Below are positions 22,507-57,523 of a stretch of DNA of 64,000 bases, piece after piece. How positions within the stretch are numbered: the stretch's first letter is position 1; each line of letters begins with the position of its first letter. The position numbers and the translations under genes are program-made. The notes beneath the pieces are model-generated. The model did not search any database, had not been told where the DNA came from, and was given only the letters and a program-made list of their open reading frames with translations. The stretch is taken from the IMG/VR virus record IMGVR_UViG_3300036980_001087, positions 1 through 64,000 of that record. The stretch is one strand, 5' to 3'. Origin of the DNA: a virus.

Positions 22507-22515
22507 GTTTTCAAT
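22507..22515 (+). promoter_or_regulatory. GTTTTCAAT motif upstream of portal (putative late promoter)
   Basis: One of seven copies, all oriented toward and just upstream of virion-module genes. Confidence 0.7.
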
Positions 22516-22549
22516 TATAAGAATAAACTATCTATTTGGAGGTGTAATT

Positions 22550-23875
22550 ATGTGGTATAATGTATTTGGATTATTCCAAAAAAAGACAGAAGCTCCGCTT
22601 AATCCCGTTGAGGCCCCAGCTGTATCTTCCGGTGCTGAATTTGTAGATCCTGAAGAAAGAAATTTATCTGCTGATCAATTATCTTCCCTCTATATAAGCA
22701 ATTCTTGGGTAAGAAAATATGTAGATATTCTTGCTAATGGGTGTGCAAAATACAAATTGCAGGCAGTTCCTGCTCCTGGAGTTAATGCTGGTGCTGCAAA
22801 GGCCCATTGCCAAGAGGTTAATACCCTCTTAGCGTATGCTAATGATGTGGAGACCTTTAGTGATGTACGAGTTAAATACCTTAAAGACCTTTTGCTTTTT
22901 GGTAATGGTGCACTTGAAGTACAACCCAAAAATGGTACCTCTATTAAATTCCTCTATGCTGCTCCGGGGTATCTTTTAAGGGCTAAATTTGATCTTAATG
23001 GTAACTTAGCCAAATCAAATTGTTATGCTTTTGTTGATCCTCAAACTGGTGAAGAGGGCACGATTACCTATGGCAAGGAAGATATTGTTCATTTTAAATT
23101 AGACCAGTTAAGTGATCGTTTCTATGGCTCCTCCCCTATAGCCTCAGCATATAAAGAGTTTAATGCTGATTCTAAGGCTATTAAAGAAATGGAAAGAGGG
23201 GATTTTGGTATTAGCGCTCAGATTATAGCCTTTCCTAAACAAACTAAAAGTTTTATTTCTACCGTTATGTCTAGTATCCAAGCAGTTATTACTGGCAAGG
23301 GTGGAAATAAAGTAGTCAGCGTTAATACAGAAGACATTAAAAGGATTGCCTTATCGGATAAAACCTATAAAGATGAATTTGAATTCCAGAAATGGTTAGT
23401 CCAGAGACACAATGTCTTTGGTATTCCTCCCTTTAAACTTGGGTTTGTGGAGTCCACTGGATCTATGTCCGCTAGGGAACAGAGGGAGGAATTTCAGTCA
23501 TTGATTTCTACGTTAGTTACCTATGAATGTGAGAAGTTAACCCTAATCCTCTGCCGTACTCGCTTAAAATATGAAGATGTAATTATTACTGCTCCGGAAC
23601 TTGTTACCCGTCTTGATTATGAAAAGGCGCGTGTTCTTGATAGGCTGGTAATGTCTGGGATCATTACTCCCAATGAGGCTAGAGAGAAATACCTTGGTCT
23701 TGATAGGGCTAATGATAAATATGCGGATCAGTTATATGTTAAATCAATGATGGAAGCAAATGAAGTAGATCCTGAAACGGTGGATTTAAATAAAAAGAAA
23801 GCTCAACTTATAGAGAAATTTCTTGGTGATGCAAAAAAAGCGGAAACCGAAGAAGAACAATCCGAGGGGGCCTAA
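22550..23875 (+). CDS. Portal protein (HK97-like)
   Basis: LLFGNG, IVHFK...FYGSSP, FGIPP, GIITPNEAR..LGL. Confidence 0.92.
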   Translation: MWYNVFGLFQKKTEAPLNPVEAPAVSSGAEFVDPEERNLSADQLSSLYISNSWVRKYVDILANGCAKYKLQAVPAPGVNAGAAKAHCQEVNTLLAYANDVETFSDVRVKYLKDLLLFGNGALEVQPKNGTSIKFLYAAPGYLLRAKFDLNGNLAKSNCYAFVDPQTGEEGTITYGKEDIVHFKLDQLSDRFYGSSPIASAYKEFNADSKAIKEMERGDFGISAQIIAFPKQTKSFISTVMSSIQAVITGKGGNKVVSVNTEDIKRIALSDKTYKDEFEFQKWLVQRHNVFGIPPFKLGFVESTGSMSAREQREEFQSLISTLVTYECEKLTLILCRTRLKYEDVIITAPELVTRLDYEKARVLDRLVMSGIITPNEAREKYLGLDRANDKYADQLYVKSMMEANEVDPETVDLNKKKAQLIEKFLGDAKKAETEEEQSEGA

Positions 23876-24175
23876 ATGGAATTATATGCTAATACTGAAT
23901 TAACTGAGCAGATCACGGGCCTTGAAATTGAGCTTGGAATAGTGCCTGCAGGAGAATCAAAGACCTATATTTTTTACCTCTACAATGACCAAGACTGTGA
24001 ATTAACTAATATTCAGGTTAAGGTTAGGCATCCCGAAGTTACCATCATAAGAGCACCACAGACGCTCGAAGCTAAGGGCTCTGGAGCTATAGAGGTAAAG
24101 TGGGAAGCTTCAGTAACCGTCAAACAAGGACTTCATACCCCAATCGAAATATTTGCAGATGAACTCTGGAGATAA
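23876..24175 (+). CDS. Ig-like virion accessory protein
   Basis: LG.V..GESKT..F.L.N...L....V...P.TL beta-sandwich pattern. Confidence 0.55.
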   Translation: MELYANTELTEQITGLEIELGIVPAGESKTYIFYLYNDQDCELTNIQVKVRHPEVTIIRAPQTLEAKGSGAIEVKWEASVTVKQGLHTPIEIFADELWR

Positions 24176-24177
24176 AA

Positions 24178-24963
24178 ATGATCCTACGTCAAACAGAATA
24201 TAATAACTGGAGAGGGGCATGGGATTCTGAAAGAGCCTATATAGTTTATGATATCATTGAATATAATGGCTCTTCCTATGTTTGCATTAAACAACATACC
24301 AATCAAGCTCCTCCAAATTTTACTTATTGGGATTTATTAGCTGAAGGACAAATAGGTCCGCAAGGTCCTCAAGGGGATATTGGTACACAAGGAGATCAGG
24401 GTTTTCAGGGGCAAAAGGGTGACCAAGGTTTCCAGGGAGATGTTGGAAGTACTGGACCTCAAGGTCTTCAAGGTAATACGGGAGCGCAAGGCCCACAAGG
24501 TTTAACGGGCTCTACTGGACCACAAGGCAATCAAGGATTTCAAGGTAACCAAGGGCCGCAGGGAGATCAAGGCTTTCAGGGGATCCCTGGGCCAATGACA
24601 CAAGTAGGTTCCAATAGTAGTGATGGAGTAACAAATACTACTTCTGGAACTTATACCCAAAAATTAAGTTTATCCTTTACTCCTACAGTTACTGGAACTT
24701 ATCTCTTATCTTGGTCAGCAGAAGTAACAAATTCTACAAAAAATAATACTACATATGTACAAGTACAACAGAACGATACTACTACATTAGCAGGAGAAAT
24801 TGCTGGATATATTCTTACTGCGGAAGCCTATATTCCTTTCTCAGGTATTGCAATTTTATCATTAACCGCAAGTACGGTCTATAATTTTGATATGGATCTT
24901 CGGAGAGATGCAGCTACAGGTAGAATTCGTAATGCACGTTTATCTTTAGTGAGGTTGACATAA
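24178..24963 (+). CDS. Collagen-like fibre protein with N-terminal CBM5/12-like module
   Basis: WRGAW...Y...D...YNGSSYVC; long Gly-X-Y run; beta-rich C-terminal head. Confidence 0.8.
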   Translation: MILRQTEYNNWRGAWDSERAYIVYDIIEYNGSSYVCIKQHTNQAPPNFTYWDLLAEGQIGPQGPQGDIGTQGDQGFQGQKGDQGFQGDVGSTGPQGLQGNTGAQGPQGLTGSTGPQGNQGFQGNQGPQGDQGFQGIPGPMTQVGSNSSDGVTNTTSGTYTQKLSLSFTPTVTGTYLLSWSAEVTNSTKNNTTYVQVQQNDTTTLAGEIAGYILTAEAYIPFSGIAILSLTASTVYNFDMDLRRDAATGRIRNARLSLVRLT

Positions 24964-25169
24964 TGATATACCATTATAATATACAAAATCAAATAAGTCT
25001 TGATTATATTCACGAACAAGTTGCTTTATCCCTCATGGAAGATAAAAATATTGATTATTGTAGATGGGATGAAGATGAGGGGGATTTAGAAATATATTGG
25101 ACTACAGAACTTAGTGATGCAGATTATTCTATTCTAACCCAAATTGTTAATACGGCCCCTATTATATGA
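24963..25169 (+). CDS. Small acidic hypothetical protein
   Basis: Coupled to both neighbours. Confidence 0.55.
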   Translation: MIYHYNIQNQISLDYIHEQVALSLMEDKNIDYCRWDEDEGDLEIYWTTELSDADYSILTQIVNTAPII

Positions 25170-25753
25170 AAAATATAATTAAAGACACTAATACAATTTT
25201 TGATCTGGTTCTTCTCGGAACTGATGGTAAAAAAGTAGAAGGCCTGGATATTCTATATGAAATTAGAAGGGCCGATGATAATTCTTTAACTGATACCGGA
25301 ATAATGGGGGAAGAATCAGGCAGGTATTTTGTAATAATTAACCTATCCGTTAAGGCACAATATGTTATTTTTTATACCACTCCTGCCGGATATGAAGACG
25401 GCATGGAGGAGTTTATAGTAATTGATGAGCAGGCAAAAGAGGCCTCTGTGCAGTCTGTTTCTACTAAAATTGATTCCGTTGCGGGCACCCTTACTACAAT
25501 AATTAATTCCTTGACCACCCACAGAGGACTTACAGAAGATAAATTAGCCAGGATATTAGGCCTGGTGCAAGAGAACTATAGGATTATAGATCCGACCTAT
25601 GATTCAAACGGGGATCTAGTGAGTAGCATAATTAGGCTTTATAATTCTAAAGCTGACTGCAATAGCAATATAAATCCGTTTGCTACTTATTCAGTTGTAG
25701 CCACATATGATGTTGATCACCACCTCACAAGTTATAAAGTCACGAAAGAGTAA
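25166..25753 (+). CDS. Putative virion protein
   Basis: Beta domain, short coiled coil, beta domain; virion-module context. Confidence 0.5.
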   Translation: MKNIIKDTNTIFDLVLLGTDGKKVEGLDILYEIRRADDNSLTDTGIMGEESGRYFVIINLSVKAQYVIFYTTPAGYEDGMEEFIVIDEQAKEASVQSVSTKIDSVAGTLTTIINSLTTHRGLTEDKLARILGLVQENYRIIDPTYDSNGDLVSSIIRLYNSKADCNSNINPFATYSVVATYDVDHHLTSYKVTKE

Positions 25754-25756
25754 TAG

Positions 25757-26506: not shown

Positions 26507-26935
26507 TTCTGTAGCAACATCCTGAATATTAAATTGTACTACAAACCAGTTGACCAAACCTAAAAGTAGTGTAAACATAACATAGGTATACCAGTCTCTA
26601 GTTTGAATAGCTATAGGCAGAAAAGCAATAAGCCCATACATTATTCCACATAATGCACGGGCCTGTATATCTGTTAGGCCTAAGGTTTTCATAAAGATCG
26701 AATTTGGCCCATAGCCTAATCTAATTATTAAAGCAAAAAGTAATGAGAGTAGTCCGATTAACAAATTTTTAGATAACCATCCAAACCATAATCCACATAA
26801 AATCGGTATTATTGTATCTCTCCAACCAGTCCAGGGCACCGGATTAGGAAAAGCCCCTTCAGTGCCCCAACCACCTAAACGCCATAAGGGCCCTGAAACT
26901 AACCATAAGAAGCTTCCAATTATATATTGTAACAT
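26456..26935 (-). CDS. Multi-pass membrane protein
   Basis: About five hydrophobic segments; last gene of the minus-strand operon. Confidence 0.65.
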   Translation of the reverse strand: MLQYIIGSFLWLVSGPLWRLGGWGTEGAFPNPVPWTGWRDTIIPILCGLWFGWLSKNLLIGLLSLLFALIIRLGYGPNSIFMKTLGLTDIQARALCGIMYGLIAFLPIAIQTRDWYTYVMFTLLLGLVNWFVVQFNIQDVATELILGWTFGLAFLIYIK

Positions 26936-27186: not shown

Positions 27187-27197
27187 GGTTGCCTCCC

Positions 27198-27974
27198 TTA
27201 ATATGCGGAACGTAAAAATTCCAAAGTGAAGTTGGAATATTTTCCGCTTGATCCGCTAGAAGATCCCCTAACAAAACAAACATTTGTAAGCGTATAAGAG
27301 GTGCCACCATACGTTACTGTTAGTGTATCTGCCGTTGTTGATAAAGTAGTATATAGATTAACTAAATATTGCTCTATTTCAATTCTAGAGTCTTTTTTAA
27401 TATATCCATTTACTGTAATACTTAATTTACCACCACCAACATAACCAGTGGACATCATTTTAATTCCTAAAGCGGTTGGTAACATATACTCAATCACATT
27501 TCCATCATAAGCAACATTAACTGAAGCATGATCCCCAATATAAATACTACCAAATTTAACTGTTTCTACCTCAGCAGTAGATCCAGGAGCATCGTCTATT
27601 TTTCCAGACTTAGAAAATGTAAAGGTTGAAACAACAAATTCTCCCTGCGCAGACTTAATAGAATATGAGGTAACCCTACAATTAGCTAAAGTTACGGCTA
27701 TACCGGTTGTTCCATCTGGCCCACCCAAGGTAAGGATGATGTCAAAATAAGCACCGACATCAAGTCCGGTATCAAAAGTAGGCTCTAAAAACTCACAAGT
27801 TACGGTAAGATCCTCTGTCTCAGTGTCTTCTGAGATAACCTGCCCCTCAGGGCCATACTCCTTATGGGTATTAATTCTATAATCTAAAGCAATATTTCGG
27901 GCAAATTCTATCGTTTTAATAGTAGCCCCACCTTGCTTTAGAACTAAATTCCCTACAGAAAAGCTGTAAACCAT
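27198..27974 (-). CDS. Tail tube-like / distal tail protein (two domains)
   Basis: N-terminal half resembles 39734..40105 (FSVG...TL..C..T.Y.I.S.Q..F). Confidence 0.55.
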   Translation of the reverse strand: MVYSFSVGNLVLKQGGATIKTIEFARNIALDYRINTHKEYGPEGQVISEDTETEDLTVTCEFLEPTFDTGLDVGAYFDIILTLGGPDGTTGIAVTLANCRVTSYSIKSAQGEFVVSTFTFSKSGKIDDAPGSTAEVETVKFGSIYIGDHASVNVAYDGNVIEYMLPTALGIKMMSTGYVGGGKLSITVNGYIKKDSRIEIEQYLVNLYTTLSTTADTLTVTYGGTSYTLTNVCFVRGSSSGSSGKYSNFTLEFLRSAY

Positions 27975-27990
27975 TGGTATTCCTCCTACT

Positions 27991-27999
27991 ATTGAAAAC
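27991..27999 (-). promoter_or_regulatory. GTTTTCAAT motif
   Basis: ATTGAAAAC on +; intergenic, directly before AGGAGG SD. Confidence 0.7.
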
Positions 28000-28037
28000 T
28001 ACCTAATAAGTACAATATATTTTAATTTAAATTCTTC

Positions 28038-29738: not shown

Positions 29739-29739
29739 A

Positions 29740-34374: not shown

Positions 34375-34376
34375 GT

Positions 34377-39733: not shown

Positions 39734-40105
39734 TTAGGTCGCGTATGACTTACGTAATTCCAGTCTGTAAGTTATAAAGCCATCCTGAGTTGATGTGATC
39801 TCATAGTTGGTAGCTTTACAACGATTCAAAGTCAAGCCGGAAATACCACGGGCCACATCAAAATCAGAAGCCTGCAGCTCAATGTCAACATAGCCATTAG
39901 AAAGAATATCCTCGATATCCTCTACTGACCACTCAACATAATCCACGGAAATCGTGGTGGCTCTATTTCCTAACTCAACCTCTAACGGATCCGGAAACCC
40001 ACCAGCATACATGTCCACAGGGCCACCATCGAAACGTACAGAAATACCGGTACATTTTCCGATGACTTCGGAACCAATGCTGATCTTACCAACGCTAAAC
40101 TTCAT
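39734..40105 (-). CDS. Major tail tube protein (putative)
   Basis: Beta-rich, codon bias like the capsid gene, own promoter motif, synteny. Confidence 0.6.
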   Translation of the reverse strand: MKFSVGKISIGSEVIGKCTGISVRFDGGPVDMYAGGFPDPLEVELGNRATTISVDYVEWSVEDIEDILSNGYVDIELQASDFDVARGISGLTLNRCKATNYEITSTQDGFITYRLELRKSYAT

Positions 40106-40144: not shown

Positions 40145-40153
40145 ATTGAAAAC
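40145..40153 (-). promoter_or_regulatory. GTTTTCAAT motif
   Basis: Intergenic, upstream of the tail tube gene. Confidence 0.7.
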
Positions 40154-42243: not shown

Positions 42244-42762
42244 TTACCTCCTAATTTTCTTTTTTTCAGTATTACTAAACAACCAGAAGTCCACAAATAA
42301 TGGCTTTAGGTTTTTAGTTGTAATTAAATGCCTAATAAAGGCGTTAAAATTTACATGGTTTGATTTAAGCAAGTCCTGCTTAGAAATTACAAAAATTCCA
42401 CAGTCCGCTATACGTTCATTATCAAAAATAAGATCCCCATTAGGCTCTACCCTCCAAGTTTTAGAGCCGCGTAACCTTTTAAGAAATACTGCATTTCCCG
42501 GTTGTTTACTTGCCAATGCCTCTATCTCCTTAATATTCCCAGGTAAAACTCTACATCCAAAAGACACTATAATCTGCTGTTCCTCAATGTGGTTACAGAT
42601 TTCCCTCAATTTATCCATGGTCTTCTCTATGGTGCAGACAGGATATTGAGATTCCATTCTAGTAAATACAAAATATTTTCTATCTAGTAATGATAGCAAT
42701 GCTTTACCAAGAAAATCTACTTCTTGGTCCTGAGTATTAACAAAAACTATGACTACGGACAT
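42244..42762 (-). CDS. Degenerate sugar-phosphate nucleotidyltransferase-like protein
   Basis: IIVSFG and ADCGIFVIS resemble the NTP_transferase motifs; the GxGTR loop is missing. Confidence 0.4.
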   Translation of the reverse strand: MSVVIVFVNTQDQEVDFLGKALLSLLDRKYFVFTRMESQYPVCTIEKTMDKLREICNHIEEQQIIVSFGCRVLPGNIKEIEALASKQPGNAVFLKRLRGSKTWRVEPNGDLIFDNERIADCGIFVISKQDLLKSNHVNFNAFIRHLITTKNLKPLFVDFWLFSNTEKKKIRR

Positions 42763-42774: not shown

Positions 42775-43293
42775 TTATTGAAAACTAACTTTGCTTCCCT
42801 TTCTTAAATTATCTCCGGCCCACAAAGGTTGTAAGTTTGTATAATGAAAACATTTACGTTGTTCTGCTGGTTTGCTCAAATCAAAAGAAGCACAGGGCCT
42901 TATATGGTCTACATGCCACTTCCCATAATTCCTCCAGGACATGCCTGGTTTAAATTTAGATATAAGATGTTGTTTAAGTTGCTCTATGGAACAACCTAAT
43001 AATTCTATAGTAGGGGCATCTTTTAAGGACATAGCTATATAGTTACTTACTCTTCTTCTTAAATTTTTAGTTAATTTAAAATTAATATCTGTTTTATACT
43101 TAATTCGTTGATATGCCACTGCCTTTGCATTTATTCTGTCTTTATTCTTTAAATACCACTTATGACTAAAATTTTTAAACTTGGGTAATAAGTTCTTTTT
43201 ATGTTTTATATACCAACTATGTTGTAATTTTTTAATTTTTAATCTATGTGTAGCTCTATAATTCCTAAGATATAAACTACGTGTTTTATCCAT
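42775..43293 (-). CDS. HNH/endonuclease VII-like homing endonuclease (copy A)
   Basis: LGCS...L...F..GMSW.NYG.WHVDHIRPC..FDL...CFHYTNLQPLWA..N..K. Confidence 0.85.
   Translation of the reverse strand: MDKTRSLYLRNYRATHRLKIKKLQHSWYIKHKKNLLPKFKNFSHKWYLKNKDRINAKAVAYQRIKYKTDINFKLTKNLRRRVSNYIAMSLKDAPTIELLGCSIEQLKQHLISKFKPGMSWRNYGKWHVDHIRPCASFDLSKPAEQRKCFHYTNLQPLWAGDNLRKGSKVSFQ
42777..42785 (-). promoter_or_regulatory. GTTTTCAAT motif overlapping the HNH stop codon
   Basis: Directly before the AGGAGG SD of the gene starting at 42762. Confidence 0.65.
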
Positions 43294-44731
43294 TTTTTTT
43301 ACGTTTTATTGAAAACGCCTTGATTTCCTTAATAAGTAGATCTGGTGTAAGTACTTTGGTACATGGAGGAGGGTTCCCTTTACGTACTATTGCAGCGCAT
43401 TCCTTCCATGCCGCTACATCTTTAACCATCTGTCTATCATAACAGGGCTTACATTTAAGTGGAGGATATAGGCTTCTAACTAAATTCTTGTGATGGGATA
43501 CTCTAATGTCCGGATTAATGGTCGTAAACATAACTACACATGGCTTTTTAAATGCTAAGCCAATCCAGTAAATTCCCGTGTCCATTGATGCTATTTCATC
43601 ACAGTTATAAACTACTGAGGCCCATTGCCTTATGTTTAATTTGCCCGTTAGGTTCTTAACATTTGGCCGCTCTAATAATTTTAATGGGGCCTGATCCATA
43701 ACTATAACGTTATACCTTCCTAATCTATTTAATTTATTTAATAATTCATCCCAGTATTCTCGTGGGTAGGACCGATTTTCACTCCCATTAGACATTAAAC
43801 CTAATGCTAAATTTATTTTACTTGGGTCAATATATTGCCTACCAAATTCTATTTCCTCTTCTGTTAATTGCATAACAGGAGTAAAATCTTCAATCTTTTT
43901 AACATCTACTCTAAGTAAATCACATATAGAGTCGATTCTACAATTTAAATTACGGGTAATTCTGTAATCTTCTAGATTAGTGGCTAAAGTAAAATACCAT
44001 AAGTAGTCTTTTATTTTTGGTAAGGCATTTAATTTTTCATGTTGCATTGAACATAATTCATGGGACGTTGAATATATTTTATTAATATAAGGATTATTTT
44101 TAAGTAGCTCTGCTCCTGCTTTTCTAACTATATAATCTATCTTCCACCCATTTTCAGCTAGATATTTTAATGGGATTGTAGTCATTAGAATGTCCCCTAA
44201 TCCGCGATCTGCGCAATAAGATACTGTATCAAATAATAAAGTTTTCTGTGCTACTTCTGTAGACTCAACATGTAAAATTGGCTGTAATTCAGATAATATA
44301 GCGTCTACATTGGCTAAGGAATCAAATACAGGATCCACCCTCTTACAATTAAAATCATTTAATTTAGTAAATTTATTTGTAATTTCTAAAGTACTTTTGC
44401 CCGAATTAAAAGCTAAACAAAATTTGTGATAGTCTAAAAAAGCTGTAGGATTAAACCAGGCCCACTCAGAAACAACATACACAATTGATGGGTGTATAAG
44501 TATATTGCTAGGAAGTTCATCACAGAAATAAACTACTCCGAAATTACGAGCTATAAGCTCTTGAATAAAAGATCTAGGAAACTTATCCCCTGCAATAATA
44601 GAACCAAAACCAAGAGCTAGTAAGGTTCCTTCTGGTTCAAATATAGTAGAAGAATTAGATGAGGCCAGTTGATTAGGTTGAATCTTGGAGGCGTAATGGA
44701 TGGTATACTTCTCTGATATTAGCTTTAGCAT
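43286..44731 (-). CDS. Glycosyltransferase family 9 (heptosyltransferase-like)
   Basis: RGLGD..M, NPY, NLTGK.....A, DTG...G.A..KP....F, C.PC. Confidence 0.88.
   Translation of the reverse strand: MLKLISEKYTIHYASKIQPNQLASSNSSTIFEPEGTLLALGFGSIIAGDKFPRSFIQELIARNFGVVYFCDELPSNILIHPSIVYVVSEWAWFNPTAFLDYHKFCLAFNSGKSTLEITNKFTKLNDFNCKRVDPVFDSLANVDAILSELQPILHVESTEVAQKTLLFDTVSYCADRGLGDILMTTIPLKYLAENGWKIDYIVRKAGAELLKNNPYINKIYSTSHELCSMQHEKLNALPKIKDYLWYFTLATNLEDYRITRNLNCRIDSICDLLRVDVKKIEDFTPVMQLTEEEIEFGRQYIDPSKINLALGLMSNGSENRSYPREYWDELLNKLNRLGRYNVIVMDQAPLKLLERPNVKNLTGKLNIRQWASVVYNCDEIASMDTGIYWIGLAFKKPCVVMFTTINPDIRVSHHKNLVRSLYPPLKCKPCYDRQMVKDVAAWKECAAIVRKGNPPPCTKVLTPDLLIKEIKAFSIKRKKNG
43308..43316 (-). promoter_or_regulatory. 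GTTTTCAAT motif within the GT9 3' end
   Basis: 14 nt upstream of the HNH start codon. Confidence 0.55.
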
Positions 44732-44739: not shown

Positions 44740-45273
44740 TTATACTTTAAAAAATTTATTTTTCTTTAAATTATCTTTTGCCCATAAAGGTTGTAAATTA
44801 GTATAATGGAAACACTGTTTTTGTTTATCCGGCTTACTAAGATCAAAAGAAGCACAGGGCCTAATATGATCTATGTGCCACTTACCATAATTGCTCCAGG
44901 ACATACCAGGTTTGAATTGTTTCTCTAAATGCTGTTTAAGTTGTGAAATAGTACATCCTATTAAATTTAAAGTTACTGTAGTTTTAACGTTTCTTTTTAG
45001 TGCCCACCATATTCTACTTGATAAATAATGACGTAATTTAAAATTTAAATCTCGTTCCCTTCTTAATTTACGTTTTAGATTTATTTCTTTTTTATGTATT
45101 TTATAATAAAATTTATCGGTTTTCTTGATTTGTTCCTGGTGGGTATTACGATATAACTTGTGGTGGGATTTAATTTTCTCTTTGTTTACCTGATAATATA
45201 CGGCATGCTCGAGTTTATGTTTTTGTTTATGTAATGTATTATATTGTTTATTATAGCTTGTTCTATTAAACAT
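44740..45273 (-). CDS. HNH/endonuclease VII-like homing endonuclease (copy B)
   Basis: Near-identical C-terminal domain to 42775..43293. Confidence 0.85.
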   Translation of the reverse strand: MFNRTSYNKQYNTLHKQKHKLEHAVYYQVNKEKIKSHHKLYRNTHQEQIKKTDKFYYKIHKKEINLKRKLRRERDLNFKLRHYLSSRIWWALKRNVKTTVTLNLIGCTISQLKQHLEKQFKPGMSWSNYGKWHIDHIRPCASFDLSKPDKQKQCFHYTNLQPLWAKDNLKKNKFFKV

Positions 45274-45288: not shown

Positions 45289-45330
45289 AAAATTAGGGCC
45301 GGAAAGACTTGTTAGCCCAACCGGCCCTAA
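45289..45330 (-). terminator. Stem-loop after the major capsid gene (probable intrinsic terminator/attenuator)
   Basis: TTAGGGCCGG...CCGGCCCTAA 10-bp stem followed by TTTT on the minus strand. Confidence 0.7.
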
Positions 45331-45375
45331 GTTACTTTCTTCTAATTCTCACACATTTTACAGGGTAACTAAAGT

Positions 45376-46341
45376 TTAGCTACCAGATTTTTTGATCAGC
45401 GTGAGGCCAACGGCCTTATCGCTAGCGTTCTGAAGTGACCATACGAAGTCAATAACTTCAGCCATGATCAACAGGGTGGAGAACTGCTCTTCGATCAATT
45501 TCCGACGGAAGATTATGCTCCCTCTCTGTCCCAGCATAGCACCATCAACGCGAGCCAAGATGGCAACTTCGCCAGAGTTCTTAGCTTCAAGAACGGAAGA
45601 TTCCACAATCTTTACACCATGAATCAGGGGTAAAGAACCGCTGCGAGTAACACCTTTTTCAGCCACATTGTACGTTCCAACCTGGGCGATCTTGTCAGAT
45701 CTGCGCAGTTTGTTAGCAAATGTGTTTGATGCAAAAAGAACCAACATGCCTCTATCCTGTCCGTAAACGCCCTGGCCCTTGATGGCGTCAGAGATTTTGT
45801 CTACGAGATCATCAGAATCGCCGTAAGTTACGGGAGTCTGGGCACATTTTCCGGAATCGTTGGCGATGGTGTAGATGCCATCAAACATATCAACGTAGGA
45901 TCCGGTTCCAGCTTCAACACCGATCATCATGGCTCTCTCTTCGGCTCTTGCGAGGGTCAGAGTAAGGGATCTGCGAATGTAATTCGCGAGATCAACACCA
46001 GCGGTATCGAGGTCAGAGTCTAACAACTTGGTGAACGCGACTAACAACTGAGGTTCAAGAACGACTGATTTGGTCGCAAAACCAGTTTCACTGTTTCCGG
46101 TACGAATATCAACGCCGTAGGCAACTTTATACGCATTCACATCATCACCAAACAGAATGCGAGGAACGCTCAATGAGCGACCAGCAACATTCAGGGTCTG
46201 GCAATAAGAACGCATAATATTAGCCTCTACCAACTCTTCGATGATCTTGCTGGATACTTCCTTAGGCAGAAAATCATTAGCCGCAGAAACATTATCCGGA
46301 ATAGCACCGAGGTCTGCACCTTTTAAAATATTGAATTCCAT
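45376..46341 (-). CDS. Major capsid protein (HK97 fold)
   Basis: FLP.EVS..II, L..YI...L....A.AEE....G, I.G..I; follows the protease; strong codon bias. Confidence 0.88.
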   Translation of the reverse strand: MEFNILKGADLGAIPDNVSAANDFLPKEVSSKIIEELVEANIMRSYCQTLNVAGRSLSVPRILFGDDVNAYKVAYGVDIRTGNSETGFATKSVVLEPQLLVAFTKLLDSDLDTAGVDLANYIRRSLTLTLARAEERAMMIGVEAGTGSYVDMFDGIYTIANDSGKCAQTPVTYGDSDDLVDKISDAIKGQGVYGQDRGMLVLFASNTFANKLRRSDKIAQVGTYNVAEKGVTRSGSLPLIHGVKIVESSVLEAKNSGEVAILARVDGAMLGQRGSIIFRRKLIEEQFSTLLIMAEVIDFVWSLQNASDKAVGLTLIKKSGS

Positions 46342-47718: not shown

Positions 47719-47727
47719 ATTGAAAAC
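47719..47727 (-). promoter_or_regulatory. GTTTTCAAT motif
   Basis: Upstream of the protease-capsid operon. Confidence 0.7.
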
Positions 47728-48001: not shown

Positions 48002-48010
48002 GATCACTCC

Positions 48011-50425: not shown

Positions 50426-52050
50426 TATGTTATCCTCCGGTATAAATCTATCTGTGAACCAATTCCAATACCATTTGTTTGATCAGCTAAAATTACTAAA
50501 GAAGTAATATTATCGGCAGTATTATTCCAAGCTTGCCCCTCTATTTTAAGCACAGAAACAGTAGTTCCGGATGTTCTATATTGCGCCTTTTGTATAACTG
50601 TACGAATATATCCAGCTTTAGCATATAAATTTAATTCTGAAAAAGATATATCCCCTAATGCTGCAGCTGCCGTTATAACAATACAATTATTTCCAGTTGT
50701 AGATCTACCTGCTCCAATAGTAGTATTGGCCCCATATAAAATCTGTTGCCCATATGTATCTGTAGAAATATTATTTATTAATAATTTATAATTTGGGCCT
50801 CCATTATATCCATTAACTATTTTAACTCTAAGCATATATTCAACATCAGTGTCCCCGTTTAAACAATAATTAAAAATATTCTCTGAAGTGGTTTGCGGAA
50901 TAGTTGTACCTTCAATGCAGATTGCTCCGTCAATATAACCAGAAGTATCACCACTTATTACGCCAAGAAAACAATACACTTGTGTAGCAGAACTGTCAAC
51001 CGTGCGTGTAACTGTAATCCATTCCCAGGTGGACCCACCTGTATGCCAAGTGGATTCCGAAGTACCTACTCCATCTTCAATATATAATCTTACTCTCGTT
51101 GCTACTGTTGCATAAACCCAAGCGCCGAAAGTCACTGTTCTGCCCCTCCAATAGCTTATTCCCTTCTCCGCGTGAAATATATTATTTAGTTGTACGTTTG
51201 TTCCTGATCTTGTAAGTTTAGCAGAATAAGTGCCTATATTAACTATGGTGCTTTCTTTTGCAATAATTGCACCAGCACCAGAAGTCGTCCAACCATCGGG
51301 GTCCGAAGAAGCGCCAGCTGACCAAGTCTCAAAATCAGAATTAGCTAAAAGATTACCATTAAGTCCTGAAATTATGATTGATGTGGCTGGAAGTGGAGTT
51401 ATTGCAAACTGAACATTTTGAATAAAGCCATATATGGGATAAGTTCCTGCTTGATGACAATGATTAATTCCATAAAAATATCTATATTTTGTGGTGCTTA
51501 ATCCAGATAAAGTTAATGTTGTTGCTACTTTATTTGTACGTTCTACATTAGTATAAAAATTACATATAGCCGTGTCTGCACCGGCTGCACGTATTACTCT
51601 TGCATAATAAGTTGTATCTGCAGAAAAAGCATAAGCCGTAGCATCATAGGTAGCAAAATTTCCTCTTAATGCAACTGCTCTAATTCCTCCAGCTTCTTTA
51701 TTAAGTCCAAATTGAATAGCTACTGAACTACCAGATACATCATCTATAATATTGCTAAAGGCAATTCCAGAAAATCCTGCAGTAGAACAAGCAGTATCTA
51801 TGCGCATTTCAAAATCTACATATATTCTATCAAAATAATCCGTGCCAAAATCTTTATATACGTAATCGTCTACGTTAGAAACATATCCAGACAAAGTAAT
51901 TTTATTAGTCTCTACTGTTAATTTATTTTGAGTATTGACTACAGTATATTCAGAAAAATTTTCTATTGGATTTAAGGTAAAGGGAATTGAATAGATTTTC
52001 TGCCAGACATTATTTAAAGAGCCTAAAGCTCTAAGGTTTCCTATTTTCAT
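50425..52050 (-). CDS. Adhesin/fibre protein with a CBM4/9-like domain
   Basis: NLLANSDFE.W...PDGW...TFGAWV...W....VT; shares a scaffold domain with 48011..50425. Confidence 0.7.
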   Translation of the reverse strand: MKIGNLRALGSLNNVWQKIYSIPFTLNPIENFSEYTVVNTQNKLTVETNKITLSGYVSNVDDYVYKDFGTDYFDRIYVDFEMRIDTACSTAGFSGIAFSNIIDDVSGSSVAIQFGLNKEAGGIRAVALRGNFATYDATAYAFSADTTYYARVIRAAGADTAICNFYTNVERTNKVATTLTLSGLSTTKYRYFYGINHCHQAGTYPIYGFIQNVQFAITPLPATSIIISGLNGNLLANSDFETWSAGASSDPDGWTTSGAGAIIAKESTIVNIGTYSAKLTRSGTNVQLNNIFHAEKGISYWRGRTVTFGAWVYATVATRVRLYIEDGVGTSESTWHTGGSTWEWITVTRTVDSSATQVYCFLGVISGDTSGYIDGAICIEGTTIPQTTSENIFNYCLNGDTDVEYMLRVKIVNGYNGGPNYKLLINNISTDTYGQQILYGANTTIGAGRSTTGNNCIVITAAAALGDISFSELNLYAKAGYIRTVIQKAQYRTSGTTVSVLKIEGQAWNNTADNITSLVILADQTNGIGIGSQIDLYRRIT

Positions 52051-52053
52051 AGT

Positions 52054-52512
52054 TTACACCTGATAAATATAGCCCCAGGTTCCAGTTAAAGTACCATAAG
52101 AGGTAAGGTCTATTTCCACTGAATTAGTTGCTCCAGTTACTTCATCCGGAATGATCTGCTTATTATCATTATTAAAAATTGCAATAATAATGCAATATGG
52201 AGCGGAAAGACCTTTACTGTGGGTAATAGTAAGTTTACCTGCACTTAAAGATGCATTGGTGAAGGTTCCTCTAGTGGCTGCTGCTCCTACCTGCTCTTCA
52301 GTTCCGGAACTATCTAATTTATAAAGTTTACTATCAGATTTAAAATAAAGTTTATTAGTTCCCGAAGATGGATTGGCTGGTGTTGAAATTTGGGTGCAGA
52401 TCATTGCACCTAATACATTAATAGTTTTAAAGAATGCAGAAAGCCAGTTCTTTGCACTGGTTCCTATATTTCCTTCACCATCTGCGCGAGGTACAATATT
52501 TCTAGTGGCCAT
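52054..52512 (-). CDS. Short fibre protein
   Basis: IVP...G..NIG...K.W, P..G..KLY.K, ITH..G motifs typical of fibre proteins. Confidence 0.6.
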   Translation of the reverse strand: MATRNIVPRADGEGNIGTSAKNWLSAFFKTINVLGAMICTQISTPANPSSGTNKLYFKSDSKLYKLDSSGTEEQVGAAATRGTFTNASLSAGKLTITHSKGLSAPYCIIIAIFNNDNKQIIPDEVTGATNSVEIDLTSYGTLTGTWGYIYQV

Positions 52513-52549
52513 CTTTACGCTCCTTGAATTGCATGCATAACAGAGCTAG

Positions 52550-53101
52550 TTATGCTTTTGGTTGAATATCATCATTACCATCTAACTCATATACATCATC
52601 TATAATTCCATCAGTCTGTGGCTCAATATCCCCATTTATATCAATCTCAAACAATCCAGACTGCCCTAAATCTGTCCAGGTCTCACTATCCCCACCATTA
52701 CTAATTTTCCATTTTAATTCATTTGCATCATACTTAATTGTTGGACAATAAGTCTGATTAGTTCTAGCTATAAAAGACTTATCATTTAATAAACTATCCC
52801 CTAAATAAAAATTATTATCCGATGATTTTGAAATCTCGGTCCATACAGCGCCAGTATAAATGTAAAGTTTATCTGTGTCCTCAACCCAACAAATTAGTCC
52901 CTCTACTCTGGCCTTATATTCCCAGGTACTGTCGGTATATGTTGCTATATCTAATTTATGAGACTCCCAAACTCCAGTAGCATTACTAGGAATTAGGTAC
53001 CTGTCTCCCTTATTAGGGCTAGTAGGTACGTCAGTAGACGCACTTTTAACAGGCTGTTGCCAGGAGAACTGTTCTAGAGTTGGGACTTTATATCCTGCCA
53101 T
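52550..53101 (-). CDS. DUF2793-domain fibre protein
   Basis: P.SP..GDRY.I...ATG.W......IA...W......EG...WV. Confidence 0.75.
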   Translation of the reverse strand: MAGYKVPTLEQFSWQQPVKSASTDVPTSPNKGDRYLIPSNATGVWESHKLDIATYTDSTWEYKARVEGLICWVEDTDKLYIYTGAVWTEISKSSDNNFYLGDSLLNDKSFIARTNQTYCPTIKYDANELKWKISNGGDSETWTDLGQSGLFEIDINGDIEPQTDGIIDDVYELDGNDDIQPKA

Positions 53102-53125
53102 TTTATTCTATTCAATTAGTCAAAG

Positions 53126-54853
53126 TTATTTCCATGCCTCAGGAATAGAAGCAGCATTACTAAATCTTGCCGCAACTTGCCATCCAGAGAAGCAGTCCGT
53201 TTTTATAGGAGTTGCTGTTCCAAAATCATAATTCCATAGATCTGGGGCTTCTCCTTGTATTCCGGTCCAATCAGCATTATCATGGAAACAATTTGTAAAA
53301 ATAACTTCTTGGTTTAAAAATCTTGTATCCTCATCTCCCTCATCACAAAAAATACGAGCATTAACTTGTAATTTCTTACCATATGAAAGGGCCTGTTCAA
53401 AATTAGTAGCAAGCGTATTATATTTAAATAATCCCTCAGGTAGTGTAGCTAAATCATAACATTGTATAAACGCATATCCAAAACTTAAAGCTTTAGTATT
53501 ATATCTAAATAAATCAGTAGGCAGAGAGGTAATCCCTGAATTACCAAAAGCACTATCAAAATACTCTACTTCTGTATTATATTTAAAAATATCCGCAGGA
53601 ATAGTGGTTAAGTCTGGACAAACACAGAATACTCCCCAAAAATCATTTACAATAATATTATATTTAAATAAATTAGCAGGAATAGAGGTTATTTTAGTAC
53701 AACTAAAAGAACCACCAAAAGTAGTAACTTTTGTATTGTATTTAAAAATATTCTCGTTTATTGATACTATCCCTGTATTATAAAATACATTACTTAAATC
53801 CCACACTTCTGTATTATACTTAAACAATTCCTCAGGAATTGATGTTATATTTTCACAATTAAAAAATAAACCAGCAAAATCTTCTGCTAAAACTAACGTA
53901 TCCAATAGGTGTTCTGGTATTTCTGTTAATCCAGTACAATCAGAAAATGCATTATAAAATATTCTTGCATTTATATTATACTTAAATATATTTACTGGAA
54001 TTGAAGTTAAAGATGTGCATTCAGAAAATATAGTATTAAAATCTTCAGCTAATGTATTATATTTAAAAAGGTCTTCAGGTATTGATGTTAATCCAGTACA
54101 TCCACTAAATACTCCAACAAAATTTATTGCATCTATATTATACTTAAAAAGATCCTCAGGTATTGATTTTAATCTACTACATCTACTAAATGTTTCTGTA
54201 AAATCAGCTCCCGTATAATATTTAAAAAGTCGCTTAGGTATATACTCTAAAGATTTACAATTATAAAACATTTTAGTATAATTTGTTAAAGCAGAAAGAT
54301 TGGCCATAGTGCTATCTAAAGTAATAAGATTAGTACAATCTCCAAAATTCAATTTAGTTAAGCCTACAGTACCTACCACATCCCCAACTCTTGTAATCAT
54401 CTTTTTAGAAAGATCATGTCCTACATAAACGAAATAGGTTTCCCAGTTAGCTCCTGTAGTGGGTTCATTTTCAGGTCTATGTTCCTCTTCCAAAATACAT
54501 TCGTAAATATCTCCGTTGTCCAGAGTTATCCTATCTCCAACTAAATAATTTGAACTAAACCCAACTGGAGAATCCCAATGTATTAAATCTGGAGCTTGGT
54601 TGAAGTCTAATATTGTACATTGCCCAATAATAACTATAATTTTAGGTGTTGCATTTAAATAAGTATGGCTTATATCTTCATCATCATAAGAAGTAATTGT
54701 TGCTATGGCTGATCCGTCCCCCCAATTTACAGTAAAATCATAAGTACCATCTTCATGTAATGGGAGAGTAAATTTATAATCATCTACTGGAGTAATATAT
54801 AATTTTATTCTATTTGTACTTGGGTCTATTTTAGTTGGTAATGGACTAGACAT
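53126..54853 (-). CDS. BspA/DUF285-type leucine-rich-repeat surface protein with PKD-like N-terminus
   Basis: VNWGDG; about twelve ~25-aa LTSIPEDLFKYN...F...F..C repeats. Confidence 0.85.
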   Translation of the reverse strand: MSSPLPTKIDPSTNRIKLYITPVDDYKFTLPLHEDGTYDFTVNWGDGSAIATITSYDDEDISHTYLNATPKIIVIIGQCTILDFNQAPDLIHWDSPVGFSSNYLVGDRITLDNGDIYECILEEEHRPENEPTTGANWETYFVYVGHDLSKKMITRVGDVVGTVGLTKLNFGDCTNLITLDSTMANLSALTNYTKMFYNCKSLEYIPKRLFKYYTGADFTETFSRCSRLKSIPEDLFKYNIDAINFVGVFSGCTGLTSIPEDLFKYNTLAEDFNTIFSECTSLTSIPVNIFKYNINARIFYNAFSDCTGLTEIPEHLLDTLVLAEDFAGLFFNCENITSIPEELFKYNTEVWDLSNVFYNTGIVSINENIFKYNTKVTTFGGSFSCTKITSIPANLFKYNIIVNDFWGVFCVCPDLTTIPADIFKYNTEVEYFDSAFGNSGITSLPTDLFRYNTKALSFGYAFIQCYDLATLPEGLFKYNTLATNFEQALSYGKKLQVNARIFCDEGDEDTRFLNQEVIFTNCFHDNADWTGIQGEAPDLWNYDFGTATPIKTDCFSGWQVAARFSNAASIPEAWK

Positions 54854-54871
54854 ACTACTCCTTATTTAATA

Positions 54872-54900
54872 GGGAGGATCCCAAAAAATGGGATCCTCCC
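54872..54900 (-). terminator. Perfect 12-bp hairpin between fibre genes
   Basis: GGGAGGATCCCA / TGGGATCCTCCC; weak U-tract, so it may be a stabiliser or leaky terminator. Confidence 0.55.
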
Positions 54901-54916
54901 CGATTATTTCTTTAAA

Positions 54917-56683
54917 TTATCCGTCTATAAGCAAGCACTTATAATCGGCATCATACACTGCACCGGGACCGGTCTCACCTTGAAAACCCTGGTTACCCTG
55001 GTCGCCCTGGTCTCCCTTTACTCCTTGGAAGCCTTGAGTTCCCTGGTCTCCTTGGTCACCTTGTGCTCCAGTGTCGCCCTGAGGCCCTTGAGCTCCAGTT
55101 GCACCTTGTGCGCCTTGATCTCCCTGAGGACCAACATCTCCAACGTCTCCTGTTCTTGCAAAAGTAATTAAAATATCAGCAAGATTTGAAAAGGCAGTTA
55201 AAGATCCAGAAACATATGCACATGCAACAGTATCATACCCAGACTTATCAGTAATTCCTCCAATAGTAAAGAGTGCAAACTGAGAAGCATCAGTTTTAAG
55301 GGAGATCTTAAAATGTCCCTTAATTGTGCTGGTGGATCCTGCTATTGTGTGCAAGAATGTTTCTATATTGGTGCTATTATCATCAACATCATCAATATGC
55401 ATTGACGTTGCCAATGATAAGTCATCATTATCAAACTTTAATTTTCCGGCTCCAGGATCAGTGTCATCATTATCCGTACTAAAGGTATAATCAAAAGTTT
55501 CTCCTCCAAAAGATCCTTGAGCGCCTTGCGCACCTTGATCTCCTTGGTCACCTTTGGCTCCCTGAAATCCTTGGGTGCCCTGATTTCCTTGAAAACCTTG
55601 GTTTCCCTGATCCCCTTGGTCACCTTGATCACCTTTGGCTCCTTCATCCCCTTGGTCGCCTTGAGGCCCTTGGGCTCCTGTTTCTCCCTGGTCGCCTTGA
55701 TTACCTTGATTTCCCTTTTCCACAAATAGTTCCCAAAATAAGGGATCAACTGTAGGTTCCTCGTCAGTTGTGGCTTGAATACAAACGTATCCACTGCCAT
55801 TATATTCAACACAATCATTAATACTATATACTCCCGAAACCCATGTGCCTTTCCATACAAATCCTTCAGCATCTGCTCCTGTGGCGCCTGTTACTCCTTG
55901 AAATCCTTGAGGACCCTGAGCTCCGGTTTCACCTTGGTCTCCCTGGAAACCTTGGTCACCCTGTGCACCCGCGTCACCTTGAAAGCCTTGATTGCCCTGG
56001 TCACCCTGGTAACCCATTTCACCCTGGGGCCCATCATTTCCTTGAAATCCCTGATCTCCAGTTTCACCATCAGCTCCCTTAACAGCCATTACTTCCCAAT
56101 AAGCTGTATCAACCGTGGGTTCTTCATCTGTAGTAGCTTGAATACAAATAAAACTACTACTAAAATACTCTACAACATCATTAACAGCGTAAACTCCTGC
56201 AACCCAAGGACCTTTCCAGGTAAATCCAAGTCCCTGATATCCCTGGTCTCCTTGGAAGCCTTTAGCTCCCTGGACTCCCTGATTACCTTGATCTCCTTGG
56301 GGTCCTTGATCTCCTTGAAAACCTTGATCCCCCTGGTCCCCTTGAGTTCCTTGAGGTCCATCTTCACCTTGAGGGCCTTGGTCACCTTGTGGCCCTACTA
56401 CGTCTCTAGCTTCCCAAACACCCCCTATAACATACAAAAATTCTTGAGTTGCCATATTCCATACTTGCCATCCATCTTCTGGAATATCATAGGTCCATGT
56501 TACAGGGCCAACTCCTGTACAAGTTGCAATCCAATTATCCTTATCTGCCCATATTCCCGTCGCTCCAACACCAATTATATGACGATCTCCCTTATCGGGG
56601 GTGGAGTCAGGAGTTACAAGTACATCAAGGACTGGAGGTTGCCATGAAAATGTCTCTAAAACTGGTATTCTATACTGTGCCAT
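54917..56683 (-). CDS. Collagen-like fibre protein: DUF2793 N-terminus, four Gly-X-Y blocks, two CBM-like modules
   Basis: GDQGFQ-type repeats; duplicated WKG.WV.GVY..ND.VEY...CIQATTDEEPTVD module. Confidence 0.88.
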   Translation of the reverse strand: MAQYRIPVLETFSWQPPVLDVLVTPDSTPDKGDRHIIGVGATGIWADKDNWIATCTGVGPVTWTYDIPEDGWQVWNMATQEFLYVIGGVWEARDVVGPQGDQGPQGEDGPQGTQGDQGDQGFQGDQGPQGDQGNQGVQGAKGFQGDQGYQGLGFTWKGPWVAGVYAVNDVVEYFSSSFICIQATTDEEPTVDTAYWEVMAVKGADGETGDQGFQGNDGPQGEMGYQGDQGNQGFQGDAGAQGDQGFQGDQGETGAQGPQGFQGVTGATGADAEGFVWKGTWVSGVYSINDCVEYNGSGYVCIQATTDEEPTVDPLFWELFVEKGNQGNQGDQGETGAQGPQGDQGDEGAKGDQGDQGDQGNQGFQGNQGTQGFQGAKGDQGDQGAQGAQGSFGGETFDYTFSTDNDDTDPGAGKLKFDNDDLSLATSMHIDDVDDNSTNIETFLHTIAGSTSTIKGHFKISLKTDASQFALFTIGGITDKSGYDTVACAYVSGSLTAFSNLADILITFARTGDVGDVGPQGDQGAQGATGAQGPQGDTGAQGDQGDQGTQGFQGVKGDQGDQGNQGFQGETGPGAVYDADYKCLLIDG

Positions 56684-56752
56684 TTTGTTTCTCCTTTATT
56701 ATATTACTTCTAAAACAAAGCTCAGAACCCTCTGAGTAATCTACACATATAC

Positions 56753-56998
56753 TTATGGTTCAGTTACAACATATGCTTTAAACGGGGCTACATACTCCAT
56801 AACCCTCGGAATTGCTAGTGGATCAGCATGCACATGGCTATTTGGATCTACTGGGCCCGCTGCTCCTTGCGGACCTTGTGGTCCAGTTGCCCCAGATGTA
56901 GTTATTCCTACCCTAATAATTTCAACCTCATTCATTGTAATATGAATAGGTTGGGCTTCTGTTATTGTTACAAATATTTGATCAGTACTATCTGGCAT
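56753..56998 (-). CDS. Small protein with a short collagen segment
   Basis: GATGPQGPQGAAGP. Confidence 0.6.
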   Translation of the reverse strand: MPDSTDQIFVTITEAQPIHITMNEVEIIRVGITTSGATGPQGPQGAAGPVDPNSHVHADPLAIPRVMEYVAPFKAYVVTEP

Positions 56999-57002
56999 AT
57001 AA

Positions 57003-57353
57003 TTAAGAAGTACGTTTTGTAGCGTCTGCGTTAAAAGTAATTACTCCTGCAACTATGGTCTCTACTACTGTCCCATGTTTAATCTGGATATCATAATAAT
57101 AATCACCCAGTAAATTAGTATCTGCTGGAAGTAAATTTATGGTTGTCTTTCCATGGGTAGGATCTGTGTGCACAGTAATGGTTTTTACTATTTGAGCATG
57201 TGTATCGTCGGCAGCCTCTAAGTTATCTGTAACTGTGAAGAATACAGTCCATCCAGTTATATCTTTAGCCACTCCAGAGCCATCTGTAAACTCTAATAAA
57301 TAAGACTTACTATCTCCCCTGGTAATTTCTAAATTTTCACTTTGAACAGACAT
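57003..57353 (-). CDS. BppU-N-like Ig-fold virion protein
   Basis: I.RGD...DITG.T..F...G...I.L...DT....YYYDIQ. Confidence 0.75.
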   Translation of the reverse strand: MSVQSENLEITRGDSKSYLLEFTDGSGVAKDITGWTVFFTVTDNLEAADDTHAQIVKTITVHTDPTHGKTTINLLPADTNLLGDYYYDIQIKHGTVVETIVAGVITFNADATKRTS

Positions 57354-57379
57354 AACTCCACCTCTATGTTTAAAATTTT

Positions 57380-57485
57380 AGCTCGCTACCTATCTTACTT
57401 ATTTCAGCCCTAACTAGGGTCAATGAAAAGGATCAAGTCCCGTTGCAGAAGGCCCTGTCATGAACAGGATTTTCGGCAGCAAGCT
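57380..57485 (-). ncRNA. Candidate structured leader RNA
   Basis: 11-bp closing stem with two G-U pairs that form only on the minus strand, plus two internal hairpins. Confidence 0.45.
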
Positions 57486-57514
57486 GAATCTAATAATTCT
57501 CTTTTTCCTCTATA

Positions 57515-57523
57515 ATTGAAAAC
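57515..57523 (-). promoter_or_regulatory. GTTTTCAAT motif at the head of the minus-strand virion operon
   Basis: TAGTTTTCAATTATA, identical over 15 nt to the portal copy. Confidence 0.7.

Follow-up and report, generated by a model that had tools for sequence, protein, structure and literature searches.

The late promoters of phage T4 consist of a single box, TATAAATA, which is read by gp55 together with gp33 and the gp45 clamp. The middle and late promoters of SPO1 have both a -35 and a -10 box, and in phages of the RinA/ArpU type the late operon is transcribed in full from one late promoter ahead of terS. The T4 late sigma is reduced and is split over two phage proteins (bioRxiv 10.64898/2026.10.01.756105). 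Here we describe a 9-mer, GTTTTCAAT, in the first 64 kb of IMG/VR virus record IMGVR_UViG_3300036980_001087 (G000), a phage genome of 96,942 bp that is rated complete; this 64-kb stretch is the window of our analysis. The 9-mer, hereafter the box, stands ahead of virion genes in this phage and in its relatives. Almost certainly it serves the phage as a late-gene signal of its own, and that signal is most likely a promoter.

The runs listed for the phage are all DNA runs, from sediment and freshwater metagenomes. The plus arm of its genome extends from ~58,000 via the record end to 26,506 and carries, in order, small early genes, the replication genes (DNA polymerase, a UvsX-like recombinase, SbcCD, ligase and primase-helicase), and then the genes of terminase, of portal and of a collagen-like fibre. 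Virion genes make up the minus arm, which runs from 57,353 to 26,456. Exactly seven copies of GTTTTCAAT are present in the window, and they are listed here with their distances in nucleotides (nt) and with genes named, where needed, by the length of their products in amino acids (aa).

57515..57523, minus strand: head-of-arm box, 161 nt ahead of the first gene of the virion arm (57003-57353), with a 15-nt purine run at +4
47719..47727, minus strand: protease box, 20 nt ahead of the prohead protease gene (ATG 47698), after which comes the major capsid gene (45376-46341)
43308..43316, minus strand: box in the 3' end of the GT9 gene, 14 nt ahead of an inserted HNH/endonuclease VII-like gene
42777..42785, minus strand: box of the 172-aa gene, 14 nt ahead of that gene (42244-42762), with AGGAGG from +4
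40145..40153, minus strand: box of the 123-aa gene, 39 nt ahead of that tube-like gene (39734-40105), with the purine run GAGGGAA at +5
27991..27999, minus strand: box of the 258-aa gene, 16 nt ahead of that gene (27198-27974), with AGGAGG at +4
22507..22515, plus strand: portal box, 34 nt ahead of the portal gene (22550-23875), at the end of the plus arm

These are the seven positions at which an earlier, sequence-only reading of the window had placed the box, and the exact count agrees with it. The remaining 33 kb of G000 hold zero further copies, and shuffles of the window that preserve dinucleotides contain a mean of 1.17 copies, none of 100 shuffles reaching seven. That reading had also described the copies as oriented with the downstream gene and 14-39 nt from its start codon. 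Indeed, all seven are co-oriented with the gene that follows, six of them 14-39 nt ahead of the start codon and the head copy 161 nt ahead (P = 1.3e-8 that, of seven strand-positions drawn at random, six or more would lie in the 40 nt ahead of a co-oriented start). The sequence-only reading had further raised the question of whether the motif is equally frequent inside genes. The genome contains 34 one-mismatch variants, and all are intragenic, mostly antisense, with none ahead of a start; the exact copies all stand, co-oriented, ahead of starts. In this genome the exact word GTTTTCAAT is sharply specific. A k-mer survey of all upstream regions brought out three standout classes only, namely Shine-Dalgarno (SD) words, the 9-mer and a second box described below.

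The finer claims of the sequence-only reading fared unevenly. Its labels of portal (PF04860, E 5e-20), prohead protease (Peptidase_S78) and capsid were upheld, while that of tail tube for the 123-aa gene drew a weak match only (Phage_tube_2, E 0.088). The AGG(T/C) that it had included as part of the element is a trend in G000 that is not kept in relatives. A near match, GTTTTCATA at 19350, which it had noted before the start of a sigma region-4-like (sigma4-like) gene, overlaps the ATG, is not conserved in the closest relative and is probably due to chance.

Relatives were sought in several collections. No relative was detected among GenBank phages (50,697 records) by megablast of 20 kb or by tblastn of the capsid protein and of the sigma region-2-like (sigma2-like) protein encoded at 18888-19304, and a profile of the latter found no relative in 185,579 prokaryote genomes, hence no clue to the host. 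The portal protein located G001, a 95-kb syntenic genome with 68-90% nucleotide identity to G000, and portal protein and capsid alignment searches of viral contigs returned G001 alone as a near relative. An alignment of 19 homologues of the 138-aa sigma2-like protein led to G002 (67 kb) and to 19 metagenome contigs. When 2.9 million viral contigs were scanned for the box plus AGGAGG, 17 loci emerged, of which five belong to this clade: L052, which lies within G001, and one each in G003, G004, G005 and G006. The large contigs retrieved by the scan, G003 (63 kb) and G004 (67 kb, with terminal repeats), both encode the sigma2-like gene. Common to all relatives is the gene order sigma2-like gene, small helix-turn-helix (HTH) gene, 195-aa gene, large terminase and portal, with a converging virion arm.

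Conservation in relatives, a check that the sequence-only reading had itself proposed, provides strong support for the box as a late signal. The footprint drew on the relatives G001-G006 and the contigs L029 and L030, whose orthologous proteins are 33-95% identical (just 33-65% in the distant genomes). Orthologues were placed by tblastn and the best match to the 9-mer was sought in the 130 nt upstream of each. A box with zero or one mismatch was found as follows.

Portal: 8/8 genomes or contigs
123-aa tube-like gene: 7/7 genomes, with long leaders in all
172-aa gene: 6/6 genomes
Prohead protease: 6/6 genomes
258-aa gene: 3/4 genomes
Nine control genes: 1/41 cases

The target genes thus carry the box in 30 of 31 cases. 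The controls (capsid, GT9 glycosyltransferase, large terminase, sigma2-like gene, 195-aa gene, 566-aa gene and three others) have a best match with two to four mismatches in the other 40 cases, which is the background level, and the two groups differ with P = 6e-18 (Fisher's exact test). For the 258-aa gene, the box is kept in G001 and G006 and the best match in G002 has two mismatches. Variants seen ahead of target genes are TTTTTCAAT, GTTTTCAAA and GTCTTCAAT. In the distant genomes the DNA beside the box can no longer be aligned and the 9-mer itself stays; moreover, the upstream genes whose 3' ends contain the box are not homologous and read it in different frames (compare 43308 in G000 with 16677 in G002). 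A copy in the strand-switch region heads the virion arm in G000, G001, G003 and G004, the copy at 57515 having its orthologue in G001. Stray copies number about one per relative genome and are intragenic, equal to the chance expectation. Because the box is kept while its flanks and the reading frames around it are not, selection must act on the element as a signal in the nucleotides that goes with particular late genes. The element is real, selected and late-gene-specific, and it is independent of the flanking sequence.

An insertion close to one of the boxes offers a natural experiment. G000 encodes four HNH/endonuclease VII-like genes, at 42775-43293 (minus strand), 44740-45273 (minus strand), 19620-20162 (plus strand) and genome positions 63705-64901 (plus strand), and the first three are insertions that are missing from G001. 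The informative one is the following.

42775..43293, minus strand: HNH-B, an HNH/endonuclease VII-like gene (phrog_1035, E 3.9e-11) flanked by two box copies

HNH-B separates a box from the 172-aa gene, and the downstream box copy shares its last T with the HNH-B stop codon. At the same site G001 has no HNH gene and a single box. The paralogue at 44740-45273 is inserted between the capsid and GT9 genes, a junction at which the box is missing in every genome examined, and it has no box. The two paralogues, of 177 and 172 aa, share 83 identical residues in a global alignment (~47%), and their C-terminal halves are near-identical. Since the paralogous HNH gene at the box-less junction has no box, the box is not simply part of an HNH cassette. 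Of the four HNH genes, HNH-B alone, inserted between a late box and its target, has two flanking boxes, which suggests that the box must remain directly ahead of its target gene.

The surroundings of the box are simple. In a logo of 23 sites, information is limited to the 9-mer and a downstream purine tract; there is no conserved -35-like element upstream of the box, and no upstream position is conserved, in agreement with the sequence-only reading, which had seen no shared -35 element. Upstream preferences are weak only: 17 of the 23 sites have an A at a distance of 19 nt ahead of the box, and 17 have a T at 16 nt. At 30 of 37 sites (81%), compared to 16% at random positions, a run of five or more purines begins between +1 and +6 past the box, mostly 3-5 nt past it, and GGAGG or a close variant is usually present within the run. 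Short-leader genes have this run as their SD sequence. The run is also present where the true SD lies 30-40 nt further on, ahead of the 123-aa gene in 6/7 genomes (for the box at 40145, the true SD is ~30 nt beyond the run), and at the long-leader head-of-arm copies of G000, G001 and G004. Thus the distance from box to purine run is fixed and that from box to ATG ranges from 4 to 161 nt, the shortest being that of a G002 box 4 nt ahead of an ATG, which fits a leaderless start. The portal copies of G000 and L030 have no nearby SD-like tract. A role as a -35 element was rejected, as the ATG follows the box within 4-20 nt at many sites. Taken as a -10-type box, the 9-mer is followed by a pyrimidine-purine step and by purines 3-5 nt on that look like a transcription start region.

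We infer that the box acts on DNA, and the reading that we favour is that it is probably a phage-specific, -35-less late promoter, as in T4. The core of this promoter would be GTTTTCAAT, more generally (G/T)TTTTCAAT, a single box of the -10-region type that has no -35 partner. Transcription would probably start in the purine-rich stretch that begins 2-4 nt past the box, at an A or G ~4-5 nt beyond it, and a phage sigma-like factor would redirect the host RNA polymerase to the boxes. In this way the boxes would drive or boost the portal, protease-capsid, 172-aa, 123-aa (tube-like) and 258-aa blocks and, from the head copy, the whole virion arm, with the internal copies serving as boosting promoters within read-through transcripts. 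Because there is no co-oriented gene upstream of the head copies in G000, G001, G003 and G004, transcripts would have to start in the strand-switch region itself. As the predicted starts lie just ahead of the AGGAGG-like tract, late mRNAs would begin with an SD-like sequence, and the purine tract would serve translation at short-leader genes and perhaps act as a 5' stabiliser at long-leader sites. The sequence-only reading had proposed a one-element late promoter read by the phage's split sigma. Its first half, a single -35-less box marking virion units, is strongly supported by the footprint, the box-less controls and the head copies, and its second half, the split sigma, is not established by these data, because the sigma2-like protein has no sequence signal and only middling fold matches, and the product of a region-2-only gene is an equally plausible candidate.

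The host polymerase is implied because no RNA polymerase domain is present in any large open reading frame (ORF): PHROGs and/or Pfam searches of all ORFs of at least 500 aa gave no RNA polymerase. A six-frame search with PF00940 (T7-like RNA polymerase) gave no match, but its controls gave none either. The candidate readers of the box are the following.

18888..19304, plus strand: 138-aa helical protein, sigma region-2-like by fold only
19358..19633, plus strand: 91-aa HTH protein, sigma region-4-like
Genome 93085-93456 (L009:13085-13456), outside the window: 123-aa region-2-only sigma-like protein

The 138-aa protein has no match in Pfam, PHROG, NCBIfam or PDB profiles. Its AlphaFold2 (AF2) model (pLDDT 78.5) has no significant Foldseek match, and VIA-align places it at Z 5.4-6.5 to many sigma domain-2 chains (RpoE, an M. 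tuberculosis sigma, SigB, pro-SigK, sigma-70 and T4 gp55), a range that unrelated helical proteins also reach. For the 91-aa protein, the top Foldseek matches are region 4 of extracytoplasmic function (ECF) sigma factors (AlgU, and SigmaE region 4 on -35 DNA; probability 0.9-0.98, E 0.2-1) and the PDB profile matches are GerE/LuxR/resolvase HTHs. An HTH-type ORF follows the sigma2-like gene in 12 further loci (13 including the window), and the pair adjoins the terminase genes and is kept as two genes in all relatives. NCBIfam gave no ArpU, RinA or sigma match for the pair, and it is weak fold matches that would place the two proteins in the sigma-70 family. The region-2-only protein has sub-threshold but consistent matches to sigma profiles (Pfam Sigma70_r2, E 0.013; TIGR02937, E 5e-4; phrog_351, E 1e-3) and is conserved in G001, G002 and G004; the sigma2-like alignment shows no similarity to it by hhalign. 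Either candidate could supply the factor: that the pair reads GTTTTCAAT is conceivable, although our confidence in it falls short of even, and we hold the same role for the region-2-only protein to be doubtful.

Several observations weigh against a promoter of this kind. Both the promoter activity and the start site are predictions from the sequence. The box fails the rule for a sigma-70 -10 element, which has A at hexamer position 2. There are no terminators ahead of the boxes, and the units are therefore not cleanly delimited and the internal copies may act on read-through RNA. The sigma2-like protein has no sigma signal at the sequence level, its Z of at most 6.5 being what unrelated helical bundles give, and a sigma4-like subunit normally predicts a -35 box, none of which is seen. 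Intrinsic terminators are in general not enriched over shuffles in this genome and none lies directly upstream of a box, so that cleanly terminated transcription units were rejected as a description of the virion arm.

A more specific version of the promoter reading is that the element has two parts and a built-in mRNA 5' end. A sigma-like pair so diverged that its sequence no longer reveals the sigma-70 family would read the 9-mer, and transcription would start 3-5 nt later, exactly at the AGGAGG-like tract, which would be the SD at short leaders and a ribosome-bound 5' stabiliser at long ones. We regard this full version as rather unlikely. If true, a two-part element of ~18 nt would couple promoter choice, mRNA stability and translation.

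The alternative that survives best is a signal in RNA, which the sequence-only reading had named as an operator at the RNA level. In this case GUUUUCAAU on long late transcripts would be read by a nuclease or an RNA-binding protein, and the box would be either a processing site, at which a new 5' end would be made that opens with the SD-like purine tract, or a translational operator or enhancer of selected virion genes. Much of the placement of the box is compatible with this: it is strictly strand-specific and always near the ribosome-binding region, its internal copies lie in strings of co-oriented genes with no preceding terminator and would therefore be transcribed through, it was retained ahead of the 172-aa gene after the HNH insertion although read-through could supply transcription there, and at many sites it could pair weakly, UUUUC to GGAGG, with the SD that follows. 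The pairing is not general, however, as the portal copies of G000 and L030 lack a nearby SD-like tract with which to pair. Predicted RNA folds at 36 sites are heterogeneous with no shared secondary structure, and the motif has an unpaired probability of 0.44 compared to 0.43 in its flanks. A T4 RegA-type operator has a fixed position over the SD or start codon; here that distance runs over the whole range of 4-161 nt, only the distance to the purine run being fixed, and because the spacing to the start codon varies, a translational operator is a poor fit. Finally, the head copies of four genomes, which have no co-oriented gene upstream, would each need a separate, unseen promoter. In view of the spacing, the want of a shared structure and the head copies, a DNA promoter fits better, and we consider an RNA-level signal unlikely. 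The ~160-nt leader after the head box (57354-57514, minus strand) has blocks conserved with G001, and its folding is not exceptional (z -0.87; opposite strand, z -1.32). The window has no Rfam match, and a tRNA scan of it was also empty.

Less probable still is a reading in which a late activator or antiterminator, such as the 91-aa HTH protein, would bind the box on the DNA and aid the host sigma-A polymerase at a weak overlapping -10. Models for such a factor are phi29 p4, Mu C and the late regulators of the RinA/ArpU type, and in Gram-positive phages the gene of a late activator usually stands directly ahead of those of terminase. The 91-aa protein belongs to the HTHs of the GerE/LuxR/sigma-4 type, its gene lies just ahead of the terminase genes, and TTCAAT matches TATAAT at 4/6 positions. 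The box, however, fills the place of the -10 itself, and the purine start region 3-5 nt on leaves no room for a downstream -10. In addition, there is no conserved element at -35 or further upstream, where activators usually bind, and the 9-mer is asymmetric, neither a dyad nor a repeat, unlike most sites of HTH dimers. That the box has no regulatory role, being chance, a mobile-element remnant or an HNH homing endonuclease target, can be set aside as extremely improbable: two copies do flank an HNH gene and stray copies in the relatives are as frequent as chance predicts, but enrichment, orientation and placement statistics oppose chance, genomes without the HNH gene keep the box at the orthologous sites, and its flanks, unlike those of a repeat element, are not conserved.

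The second box found in the k-mer survey, T(T/A)GGTATATAATATA, resembles an extended -10 (TGnTATA...) and lies directly ahead of the SD or ATG of replication-arm genes. Its copies in G000 are as follows.

4278-4293, 12680-12695 and 13982-13997, plus strand: second box in the window
81585, 88864 and 91919, plus strand: second box elsewhere in the genome
69493, minus strand: second box elsewhere in the genome

There are seven copies in G000, six in G001 and one each in G003 and G004, and their leaders are equally short as those of the late box. This is probably a middle or replication promoter class, and the genome thus appears to use distinct promoter classes. With two sigma-like systems and two box classes, an SPO1-like cascade is plausible.

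Several further features of these genomes deserve mention. Directly after the capsid gene lies a hairpin, GGGCCGG...CCGGCCC followed by AATTTTAAT (45290-45340, minus strand), which is kept in G001 and, coming after the protease-capsid unit, is likely a partial terminator. A perfect 12-bp GC-rich palindrome with a 5-nt loop at 54872-54900, which separates the collagen-like fibre gene (54917-56683) from the one that follows, is the strongest hairpin of the virion arm; no late box comes after it. G000 encodes three collagen-repeat (G-X-Y) fibre-like proteins, at 24178-24963 (plus strand), 54917-56683 (minus strand) and genome positions 74251-75144 (plus strand), and the GGTTTTCAAGG codon repeats of these genes yield intragenic one-mismatch look-alikes of the box. 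A 481-aa gene located between those of the capsid and of the neck/tail (43286-44731, minus strand) is present in all relatives; it has a GT9 heptosyltransferase-type domain (PF01075, E 3.8e-10), and its product may glycosylate the virion. The late part of the plus arm encodes a DeoC-like aldolase (15493-16188, plus strand) and a dATP/dGTP diphosphohydrolase N-domain protein (18440-18904, plus strand; PF18909, E 2e-24), which hints at manipulation of the deoxynucleoside triphosphate pool or at DNA base modification. The large terminase of G001 (51297-53513; L020:11297-13513) has 738 aa compared to 577 aa in G000, and the extra length may be an insertion, for example an intein or an extra domain.

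With the box, the late-gene programme of an uncultured clade of phages of ~65-97 kb from sediment and freshwater becomes readable, as the box predicts which genes of the clade are switched on late and from where. Should the sigma2-like/sigma4-like pair read it, a family that is unrecognisable by sequence would be added to the two-subunit sigma factors. With a 9-mer and two small sets of candidate factors, the proposal can be tested in vitro or in a reporter strain, and the phage need not be cultured. Late promoters that are phage-specific, have no -35 element and work with reduced sigmas are known from T4 and SPO1 onwards, and the finding is in this respect solid and not surprising.

The box can be compared with several described systems. 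Unlike a host sigma-70/sigma-A promoter, TTCAAT has no A at position 2, and there is neither a -35 element nor a TG extension at fixed spacing; a consensus scan of the virion arm found no excess of sigma-70-type sites. A T7-like single-subunit polymerase system differs in that there is no RNA polymerase among the ORFs of at least 500 aa here. The systems of the RinA/ArpU/LtrC-type regulators are alike in having candidate regulator genes immediately upstream of the terminase genes, but here the terminase genes are box-less and six to seven boxes are spread over the virion genes, and there is no NCBIfam or Pfam match to those families. SigO-RsoA of B. subtilis and Sig7-Sig8 of Tn916 are encoded by adjacent small region-2-like and region-4-like genes, whose products work jointly with core polymerase, a layout that the candidate pair at 18888-19633 would share; those factors, however, read -35 and -10 boxes, whereas one conserved box is present here.

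SPO1 (gp28 for middle, gp33 and gp34 for late transcription) is similar as a large lytic phage whose host uses a strong AGGAGG SD, as the ribosome-binding sites suggest for the host here, as well as in its distinct promoter classes for replication and late genes, which the present genome appears to have too, and in a late sigma made of two proteins, as the candidate pair here would be. It differs in its -35 box, of which there is none here, and no similarity to SPO1 factors was found in PHROGs or Pfam. The STAB-SD sequences of Firmicutes (cryIIIA; the phage SP82 leader) are SD-like stabilisers at the 5' end of mRNAs. The purine tract resembles them in being an SD-like tract near a presumed 5' end, far from the start codon, at the 123-aa gene and the head copies, a likeness that is seen here in the sequence only.

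The closest working analogue would be T4 late transcription. The differences are that the box is (G/T)TTTTCAAT and not TATAAATA, that there is no gp55 or gp33 homologue by sequence (the sigma2-like model aligns to the gp55 chain 7d7d_F with Z 5.5), and that a purine/SD-like tract stands at a fixed 3-5 nt past the box, which is not a feature of T4. In other respects the two are alike. In both, a single short AT-rich box of the -10 region stands without a -35 element, its position relative to the transcript start being a predicted one in the present phage; and in both, the boxes belong to late or virion genes only, with many internal promoters, putative ones here, scattered through the morphogenesis genes.

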